Below are positions 59 to 1,171 of a stretch of 1,274 nt of DNA, piece after piece. Where the stretch lies: NCBI RefSeq assembly GCF_003334355.1, contig NZ_QOWP01000091.1; one strand, 5' to 3'. The translations under genes and the position numbers were made by a program. The stretch's first letter is position 1. Each line of letters begins with the position of its first letter. The notes beneath the pieces are model-generated. The model searched no databases and was not told the DNA's origin. It saw nothing but the letters and a program-made list of their open reading frames with translations. Source of the stretch: Escherichia coli (GTDB lineage Bacteria > Pseudomonadota > Gammaproteobacteria > Enterobacterales > Enterobacteriaceae).

Positions 59-1171
59 ATGAATTACTCTCACGATAACTGGTCAGCAATTCTGGCCCAT
101 ATTGGTAAGCCCGAAGAACTGGATACTTCGGCACGTAATGCCGGGGCTCTAACCCGCCGCCGCGAAATTCGTGATGCTGCAACTCTGCTACGTCTGGGGC
201 TGGCTTACGGCCCCGGGGGGATGTCATTACGTGAAGTCACTGCATGGGCTCAGCTCCATGACGTTGCAACATTATCTGACGTGGCTCTCCTGAAGCGGCT
301 GCGGAATGCCGCCGACTGGTTTGGCATACTTGCCGCACAAACACTTGCTGTACGCGCCGCAGTTACGGGTTGTACAAGCGGAAAGAGATTGCGTCTTGTC
401 GATGGAACAGCAATCAGTGCGCCCGGGGGCGGCAGCGCTGAATGGCGACTACATATGGGATATGATCCTCATACCTGTCAGTTCACTGATTTTGAGCTAA
501 CCGACAGCAGAGACGCTGAACGGCTGGACCGATTTGCGCAAACGGCAGACGAGATACGCATTGCTGACCGGGGATTCGGTTCGCGTCCCGAATGTATCCG
601 CTCACTTGCTTTTGGAGAAGCTGATTATATCGTCCGGGTTCACTGGCGAGGATTGCGCTGGTTAACTGCAGAAGGAATGCGCTTTGACATGATGGGTTTT
701 CTGCGCGGGCTGGATTGCGGTAAGAACGGTGAAACCACTGTAATGATAGGCAATTCAGGTAATAAAAAAGCCGGAGCTCCCTTTCCGGCACGTCTCATTG
801 CCGTATCACTTCCTCCCGAAAAAGCATTAATCAGTAAAACCCGACTGCTCAGCGAGAATCGTCGAAAAGGACGAGTAGTTCAGGCGGAAACGCTGGAAGC
901 AGCGGGCCATTTGCTATTGCTAACATCATTACCGGAAGATGAATATTCAGCAGAGCAAGTGGCTGATTGTTACCGTCTGCGATGGCAAATTGAACTGGCT
1001 TTTAAGCGGCTCAAAAGTTTGCTGCACCTGGATGCTTTGCGTGCAAAGGAACCTGAACTCGCGAAAGCGTGGATATTTGCTAATCTACTCGCCGCATTTT
1101 TAATTGACGACATAATCCAGCCATCGCTGGATTTCCCCCCCAGAAGTGCCGGATCCGAAAAGAAGAACTAA
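59..1171 (+). CDS. insL: IS4-family DDE transposase (IS186 InsL-type), 370 aa, intact
   Basis: Uninterrupted reading frame from ATG 59..61 to TAA 1169..1171. The translation (MNYSHDNWSAILAHIGKPEEL...SAGSEKKN) matches the IS186 transposase as I recall it. Candidate catalytic residues are D at 401..403 (LVDGTAI), D at 566..568 (IADRGF) and E at 992..994. The signature Y-(2)-R-(3)-E-(6)-K is present in YRLRWQIELAFKRLK at 971..1015. The ORF track extends the frame to an in-frame GTG at 53; I prefer ATG 59 because it gives the 370-aa product. Confidence 0.9.
   Translation: MNYSHDNWSAILAHIGKPEELDTSARNAGALTRRREIRDAATLLRLGLAYGPGGMSLREVTAWAQLHDVATLSDVALLKRLRNAADWFGILAAQTLAVRAAVTGCTSGKRLRLVDGTAISAPGGGSAEWRLHMGYDPHTCQFTDFELTDSRDAERLDRFAQTADEIRIADRGFGSRPECIRSLAFGEADYIVRVHWRGLRWLTAEGMRFDMMGFLRGLDCGKNGETTVMIGNSGNKKAGAPFPARLIAVSLPPEKALISKTRLLSENRRKGRVVQAETLEAAGHLLLLTSLPEDEYSAEQVADCYRLRWQIELAFKRLKSLLHLDALRAKEPELAKAWIFANLLAAFLIDDIIQPSLDFPPRSAGSEKKN

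Follow-up and report, generated by a model that had tools for sequence, protein, structure and literature searches.

The stretch of DNA considered here, a window of 1,274 nucleotides from Escherichia coli (contig NZ_QOWP01000091.1), carries a near-complete copy of IS186/IS421, an insertion sequence (IS) of the IS4 family, and its transposase gene contains two strings in which a run of C is followed by a run of G. Several described systems can be set beside these runs. IS186 itself inserts at 5'-GGGG(N6/N7)CCCC-3', and the K-12 genome has 54 such sites (Lee et al., 2016; PMC5009759). The runs in the target comprise at least four G and then at least four C, with a spacer of 6-7 nt, rarely of 4-5 nt. 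One stated hallmark of the IS4 family is a transposase gene that has no frameshift (De Palmenaer et al., 2008; PMC2266710). Stem-loop-mediated transcriptional slippage has been described in an IS630-family element from Roseiflexus, where the hairpin GCGGGCgcaaGCCCGC stands directly 5' of a T5C5 run and transcripts without one C are found (Penno et al., 2015, as reviewed in Atkins et al., 2016; PMC5009743). This raises the question of whether the runs of IS186 act as nucleotide strings or as plain codons. For the two C-run/G-run motifs, the comparison with relatives answers with high confidence that they are codon strings for two Pro-Gly-Gly turns of the transposase and have no DNA or RNA function of their own. 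A third run, near the end of the gene, gives a different picture and is discussed thereafter. The gene and the two motifs are placed as follows.

Positions 59 to 1171, plus strand: open reading frame (ORF) of the transposase InsL (gene insL), 370 amino acids (aa), taken here as the zero frame, with the ATG at 59 and the stop codon at 1169-1171.
Positions 209 to 220, plus strand: motif 1, GGCCCCGGGGGG, read as GGC CCC GGG GGG, that is Gly51-Pro52-Gly53-Gly54.
Positions 419 to 433, plus strand: codons GCG CCC GGG GGC GGC, that is Ala121-Pro122-Gly123-Gly124-Gly125, which hold motif 2, GCCCGGGGGCGG, at 421-432.

Both strings are read in the sequence where an earlier note on this DNA, made from the letters alone, had placed them, inside the transposase gene, and the in-frame reading bears out its statement that they encode the glycine-rich stretches GPGG (aa 51-54) and APGGG (aa 121-125). 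Each motif is an in-frame CCC-GGG-GGN giving Pro-Gly-Gly (aa 52-54 and aa 122-124), and the transposase protein holds exactly two such tripeptides. The octamer CCCGGGGG is common to both motifs and has two occurrences on the plus strand. The description of the motifs as palindromic is correct in part: a perfect 8-bp palindrome is seen at 211-218 (CCCCGGGG), and at 422-427 one of just 6 bp, CCCGGG, an SmaI/XmaI site.

Conservation was compared in a protein alignment of 26 transposases (41-88% identity) and, by aligned codons, in 80 homologous genomic loci plus five close relatives. Among the 26 proteins, Tyr50, Gly51 and Gly123 are invariant and Pro52, Gly54 and Pro122 are at least 90% conserved; Gly53, Gly124 and Gly125 vary. 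Pro122 is retained in 72 of the 80 loci, encoded by CCC (31 loci), CCG (20), CCT (13) or CCA (8), and Gly123 in 77, encoded by GGC (44), GGG (15), GGA (10) or GGT (8). For Pro52 the counts are CCC 8, CCG 15, CCT 4 and CCA 2, for Gly53 they are GGC 19, GGT 9, GGG 4 and GGA 1, and at Gly54 all synonymous Gly codons are in use. CCCGGGG is present at either motif site in none of the 80 loci. The nearest relative (88% identical in protein, 87% in DNA) has GGC CCC GGT GGT and TCT CCC GGA GGC; synonymous changes break the G-runs even here, which speaks against their use as a recoding or slippery site. The +1-frame ORFs that cross motif 1 and motif 2 stop at 293 and 500, respectively. Of 30 conserved motif codons in the five relatives that are closest (65-88% aa identity), 12 are the same as in IS186, as compared with a gene-wide same-codon use at conserved residues of 35-74% (mean about 52%). 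Hence the runs enjoy no more conservation than synonymous sites in general, and, since Pro and Gly are kept with every synonymous codon, the constraint is at the protein level only. The earlier note had considered the motifs most likely to be coding consequences, and this part of it stands. Nucleotide-level conservation across homologues, which it had proposed to look for, is not what the loci display: the glycines are kept with different codons, the outcome that it had itself taken to indicate protein-level constraint only.

Pro-Gly in tight turns is an ordinary cause of such conservation. In an AlphaFold model calculated from a 27-sequence alignment (predicted local distance difference test, pLDDT, 82.7; predicted template modelling score, pTM, 0.81), GPGG (51-54) is predicted to form the turn between helices 40-50 and 57-66 of an N-terminal helical domain, and APGGG (121-125) the loop between strand 110-119, which bears the catalytic Asp115, and strand 129-136. 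A search of the Protein Data Bank (PDB) at the sequence level with the family profile gave no match. The best match of the model among solved folds is Tn5 transposase (E 3e-9; PDB 3ECP, 4DM0, 1MM8, 1MUS). Both proteins are built on the IS4-family plan, in which a helical DNA-binding part at the N-terminus precedes a DDE core with the YREK signature, and the matches (E 3e-9 to 6e-8, probability 1.00) extend over about 480 aligned columns. However, sequence identity is only 14-16%, and the likeness is one of fold. The predicted model thus suggests a structural role for the conserved Pro and Gly residues. In frame, CCC GGG GGN encodes Pro-Gly-Gly at two places where the model of the transposase has a turn or loop. 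The first (aa 51-54) is the turn of an element resembling a helix-turn-helix in the N-terminal domain, and the second (aa 121-125) the loop after the beta-strand that bears the first catalytic aspartate, Asp115. Selection acts on the amino acids, not on the nucleotide string. The C-run/G-run appearance comes from the codon habits of the element, whose Pro codons are most often CCC (8 of 14) and whose Gly codons are GGG in 6 of 29 cases, together with a modest coincidence of GGG at both sites.

Two observations weigh against reading the motifs as plain codons. The first is their improbability. The string CCCSGGGG has 4 matches in the window versus 0.04 expected, a count that none of 200 dinucleotide shuffles reaches, this null taking no account of coding. 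Under a codon-aware null, in which synonymous codons were shuffled 20,000 times within the gene with protein and codon usage kept, both Pro-Gly-Gly sites read CCCGGGGG in 289 shuffles (p ~0.014, post hoc). CCC GGG GG at both sites is nominally unlikely, a mild coincidence. The second is that motif 1 joins a local hairpin which folds better than most shuffles (z -2.3). Compared across homologous sequences, neither the coincidence nor the hairpin signal holds up. The codon reading itself rests on what was directly observed, namely the reading frame, the conservation of the residues, the variability of their codons, the lack of covariation and the mismatch with the insertion target. It should be noted that a finding of this sort is ordinary.

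Among the other explanations, one is that the G6 run of motif 1 and the G5 run of motif 2 are hot spots of replication slippage at which IS186 copies are often inactivated by a frameshift, either incidentally or as a selected off-switch. All complete E. coli genomes were searched with 80-84-nt queries in which a run had one base more or less, and the C7 run near the end of the gene served as comparison, with the following result.

G6 run (motif 1): G5 in 78 records and G7 in 5, of 2,767.
G5 run (motif 2): G4 in 69 records and G6 in 8, of 2,776.
C7 run at 1135-1141 (comparison): C6 in 146 records and C8 in 41, of 2,721.

Such alleles do exist in complete genomes, as the hot-spot explanation would have it. 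However, more than 96% of the records have no such copy, and C7 has more variants than either G-run. The frequency of variants simply rises with run length, and deletions outnumber insertions. Moreover, certain assemblies turn up with variants at more than one run (ER1709, the FDAARGOS_349 plasmid, the MS8345 plasmid, ECCWS199 and a re-sequenced MG1655). A bias to deletions is typical of homopolymer errors in long reads. Together with the dependence on run length and the recurring assemblies, it suggests assembly errors in the main, along with generic slippage. The run-length variants are not specific to the C-run/G-run junction, and in the relatives the runs are broken synonymously, hence not maintained. 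The idea that the motifs are hotspots, raised in the earlier note, finds no favour in these data, and an off-switch or incidental hot spot of this kind appears quite improbable.

Another explanation is a hairpin between the C-run of motif 1 and a G-run upstream of it, which would modulate the translation or the stability of the transposase mRNA. The predicted structure is the following.

Positions 193 to 217, plus strand: predicted local mRNA hairpin of 10 bp with a 5-nt loop, formed by the G-run at 196-199 and the C-run of motif 1.

In the local fold, the C-run is indeed paired with this upstream G-run, not with its own G-run, and most shuffles fold less well (-25.3 kcal/mol and z -2.3 for a 61-nt segment, with 6 of 200 shuffles as good; z -2.2 for a 101-nt segment). 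Nevertheless, in a 281-nt context (180-460) the minimum-energy fold pairs motif 1 differently and the z-score fades to -0.74. In a codon-anchored alignment of 28 homologues, 71.1% of the cells pair at 193-217 versus 70.5% after shuffling (194 of 500 shuffles as high), and the covariation score is 0.136 versus 0.133. The G-run at 196-199 is the GGG codon of Gly47, and most relatives have Ala (GCN) there. Motif 2 shows no RNA structure beyond chance (z -0.6 and +0.4), single-strand DNA at the motifs folds no better than shuffles (z -1.1 to +0.1), no Rfam family matches at E up to 1, and scans for promoters and terminators found none at the motifs, with counts at or below chance. Three further structures were considered and rejected. 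Pairing of the two motifs with each other, as an inverted repeat with arms 203-217 and 422-436 (80% complementary), is missing from the minimum-energy fold of 180-460; a cruciform or self-hairpin of CCCCGGGG would be loopless, its single-strand DNA folding no better than shuffles; and a G-quadruplex from the G-runs at 196-199, 215-220 and 246-248 would by inspection be non-canonical, with loops of 15, 0 and 25 nt. The stable secondary structure that the earlier note had envisaged in DNA or mRNA is thus not borne out, covariation being no better than in shuffles and the local folding signal of motif 1 being lost in the wider context, and a regulatory hairpin at motif 1 is very improbable.

That the motifs mimic or relate to the insertion targets of IS186, through self-targeting, target immunity or transposase binding, has a negligible probability. 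It is true that the motifs, like the targets, are built of a G-run and a C-run, and that IS186 prefers such targets, a point of the earlier note with which the published consensus (PMC5009759) and the flanks of the copies agree. A full copy 100% identical to the window (L001) sits in the target GGGGAACTCATCCCC with an 11-bp duplication, GGAACTCATCC; an E. albertii copy sits in GGGGTTTTACCCCC and the 88%-identical relative in GGGGATGTAACCCC, and in three further relatives the left flank finishes in GGGG followed by 8-9 nt. In the targets, the G-run comes first and a gap of 6-7 nt follows, whereas in both motifs the C-run is 5' and directly abuts the G-run with no spacer, an order that is the same on both strands. 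The motifs are not IS186 targets because the order of the runs is reversed and the spacer is missing, and GGGG(N3-8)CCCC occurs nowhere in the window. Independent insertions of IS186 and of its 65-88% identical relatives all lie in GGGG-N5-7-CCCC with duplications of 10-11 bp, sites which are unlike the motifs, and the motifs are absent from relatives that have the same target preference. The preference, an unusual one, is a trait of the clade, not just of IS186, and its link with the motifs is superficial.

Some details of the insertion sites may be added. The copy L001 belongs to E. coli 214-4 (NZ_CP025840, 1380-2960) and lies inside a CRISPR array, its target consisting of the end of a CRISPR repeat (CGCGGGGAACTC) and the start of the next spacer. 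Among the sites in GGGG-N5-7-CCCC (flanks L001, L002 and L082-L086), those of the relatives often lie inside GCGGGG...CCCCGC palindromes, and one, L085, has no matching duplication. Within the element, two near-misses to the target are seen, GGGGCTCTAACCC (G4-N6-C3, 143-155) and a GGGG-N11-CCCC (196-214), neither of which meets the consensus.

Having considered the motifs, we turn to the element as a whole. The window ends about 70 bases before the right end of the IS186/IS421 copy, whose left end is as follows.

Positions 4 to 26, plus strand: left terminal inverted repeat of IS186/IS421, 23 bp, CATAAGCGCTAACTTAAGGGTTG; bases 1-3 (TCC) are flank.

In the full copy L001, the right inverted repeat is the perfect reverse complement of the left one. 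By megablast against 5,426 complete E. coli genomes, the window is matched at 8,651 places in 2,220 genomes; matches to annotated IS421 copies are 99.8-100% identical, and 2,723 matching records are at least 99% identical, the annotated feature being 'IS4-like element IS421 family transposase'. In the protein, the Pfam domain DDE_Tnp_1 is matched at aa 107-348 (E 3.6e-26) and the NCBIfam model transpos_IS4_1 with 132 bits (cut-off 115). The catalytic Asp115 and the YREK signature (Tyr305-Arg308-Glu312-Lys319, spaced Y-(2)-R-(3)-E-(6)-K) are present, the signature being invariant in the alignment. Identity, inverted repeats, target duplication and the DDE/YREK signature identify the element as IS186/IS421. 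An in-frame GTG stands two codons before the ATG (window 53-61), so that the ORF could start at 53 and encode 372 aa; RefSeq has the ATG. On the minus strand at 770-789, antisense inside the ORF, lies a terminator-like hairpin with a T-tail, GCCGGAAAGGGAGCTCCGGC TTTTTTATTA. Such hairpins number 2 across the window versus 1.9 expected, which is chance level.

The run at which codon-level comparison gives the opposite result stands where the conserved part of the gene ends, in the following arrangement.

Positions 1114 to 1133, plus strand: hairpin AATCCAGC-catc-GCTGGATT, directly 5' of the T/C run (-10.8 kcal/mol, z -4.4).
Positions 1132 to 1141, plus strand: T3C7 run TTTCCCCCCC, coding for Phe-Pro-Pro at the end of the conserved zero-frame part, a candidate slippage or frameshift site.
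Positions 1143 to 1274, plus strand: conserved +1-frame coding extension, EVPDPKRRTNSLWRITKMVIWSLQ..., clipped by the end of the window; full copies run to a TAG in the right inverted repeat.

Whereas the codons of the two motifs vary, that of Pro361 is CCC in 56 of the 63 homologous loci that retain the proline. In IS186 and in its 65-88% identical relatives, the +1 frame has no stop between the C-run at 1135-1141 and the TAG within the right inverted repeat, and it encodes the conserved sequence ...PPE..(R/K)R.NSLWRI(T/V)KM.I.SL.AAI.G..PL..Y..LK..GHRLNEPPRRR..QM. Of 86 loci, 49 match a profile of this tail, and about 40 of these have it in the +1 frame. Where the matching loci lack a C-run at the junction, the tail is in the zero frame and belongs to a single ORF of 416-429 aa (L066 from Sphingomonas, L033 and L039 from Anaerolineae, L015 and L016 from Pseudovibrio). 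With one C removed, nearly all complete loci have an ORF of about 403-433 aa, and IS186 has one of 424 aa. Within the tail, most nucleotide differences affect third codon positions when it is read in the +1 frame, and Trp374, Arg413 and Arg415 are invariant in an alignment of the conceptual proteins. The tail, predicted by the model to form two helices (373-389 and 394-408), looks like coding sequence.

The extension comprises 63 codons, and in L001 the whole region lies at 2614-2834. The conceptual fused protein would have the junction peptide ...SLDFPPEVPDPK... and, in its tail, the peptides LNEAPR and ITKMVIWSLQVAIR. In relatives, gene callers put a 46-aa ORF right after the transposase; at least 1,000 contigs carry it, labelled either hypothetical or 'IS4 family transposase, partial'. 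Homologues of 410-437 aa in the databases were considered as natural fusions and rejected: they are zero-frame read-throughs whose Ala/Pro/Arg-rich tails are unlike the conserved tail. In these proteins (P0055-P0120, alignment A3), the TGA past the C-run is replaced by TGC, TGG or TGT. Most likely, these entries are artefacts that arose when this same junction was annotated.

The arrangement of hairpin, T/C run and +1-frame tail recurs in about 65 distinct homologous loci of bacteria and archaea. At the junction, closer relatives have TTTCCCCCCC, TTTTCCCCCC or CTCTCCCCCC and distant ones, including Methanoculleus, Methanoregula and Methanocalculus, have TTTT(T)CCCCCTGGGGATAC. In the 99%-identical E. 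albertii copy (L002), the run is T4C6, not T3C7, owing to a synonymous TTC to TTT change which keeps the length of the pyrimidine run at 10 nt. The position of the hairpin is constant and its sequence differs between loci, other examples being GGTCCAGC-acac-GCTGGACT, TCCGGC-ccgc-GCCGGA, TCCGGACC-caa-GGGCCGGA and GATCGCC-gtg-GGCGATC. When 26-nt windows were folded in 65 distinct loci, their energy averaged about -3 kcal/mol upstream, with a jump to -7.6 kcal/mol for windows ending 10 nt before the last C. A fixed-register count of base pairs (49% paired versus 43% permuted) is weakly informative, as the loop lengths vary.

This arrangement resembles that of the Roseiflexus IS630-family element. 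In both cases, a hairpin comes right before a T-run/C-run of 9-10 nt, and an RNA with one C fewer would bring the downstream portion of the transposase into frame. However, the two elements belong to different families (IS630 versus IS4), and the run of IS186 is T3C7. In addition, the Roseiflexus junction falls between the helix-turn-helix (HTH) and DDE domains, that of IS186 between the DDE core and a C-terminal tail. A search of metagenomes found the Roseiflexus-type signal, GCGGGCGCAAGCCCGC followed by TTTTTCCCCC, in at least 120 contigs (L087-L166 among them). The 38 contigs with enough flank to be translated have IS630-like genes in which the signal stands between an HTH part (...GRGRKPAFSP...) and a DDE part, and deletion of one C in the complete examples gives ORFs of about 376-382 aa. 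A relationship by descent between these elements and IS186 was rejected, since tblastn with the IS186 transposase detected no similarity in any of the 120 contigs.

The comparative anatomy of these loci points to recoding at 1132-1141. We consider it rather probable that the hairpin and T3C7 serve programmed slippage, in which one C is skipped by the RNA polymerase, or, with lower probability, a shift of the ribosome to the +1 frame on CCC_A. The functional transposase would then be a protein of 424 aa whose last 63 residues are read in the +1 frame, and the 370-aa InsL a truncated form, perhaps regulatory. If slippage operates here, T3C7 would be the only run of the gene under nucleotide-level selection. 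The main rival to transcriptional slippage is the +1 shift of the ribosome on CCC_N. It would fit with the last codon of the run, which is in every case a zero-frame CCC, and with the codon after it, which is TGA in many of the close relatives and, in IS186, the rare AGA. However, most of the distant members have CCC TGG at this place, and an upstream hairpin is not a usual stimulator of +1 shifts, which leaves the ribosomal mechanism less likely than slippage of the polymerase.

In E. coli, a C6 allele of the run at 1135-1141 fuses the two frames into a 424-aa ORF (146 of 2,721 records), and the 424-aa sequence is present at NCBI from such alleles (ARQ22920.1 and EFQ01808.1). Many of the C6 and C8 alleles are probably long-read homopolymer errors, the same assemblies erring at other runs; some C6 alleles could be real, constitutive fusions.

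The slippage or +1 arrangement is not annotated for IS186. A search for literature linking IS186 or the IS4 family to slippage or frameshifting found none, and a frameshift in the IS186 clade may have been described earlier. The annotated InsL of 370 aa may be less than the full-length protein, and the IS186-like clade may depart from the hallmark of the IS4 family, the annotated ORF itself being uninterrupted.

As regards the two motifs, IS186 offers a clean example of how striking G/C-run strings within a gene can be plain codons, and of how a codon-level comparison with relatives decides the matter. The same codon test provides the contrast, with a C-run at 1135-1141 that is kept as CCC behind a conserved hairpin and before a conserved +1-frame tail. 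If the recoding reading is true, the IS4 family would gain a clade that uses a frameshift, slippage at a stem-loop followed by a T/C run, so far described for one IS630-family element, would be widespread, and this stem-loop mechanism would become testable in E. coli itself.

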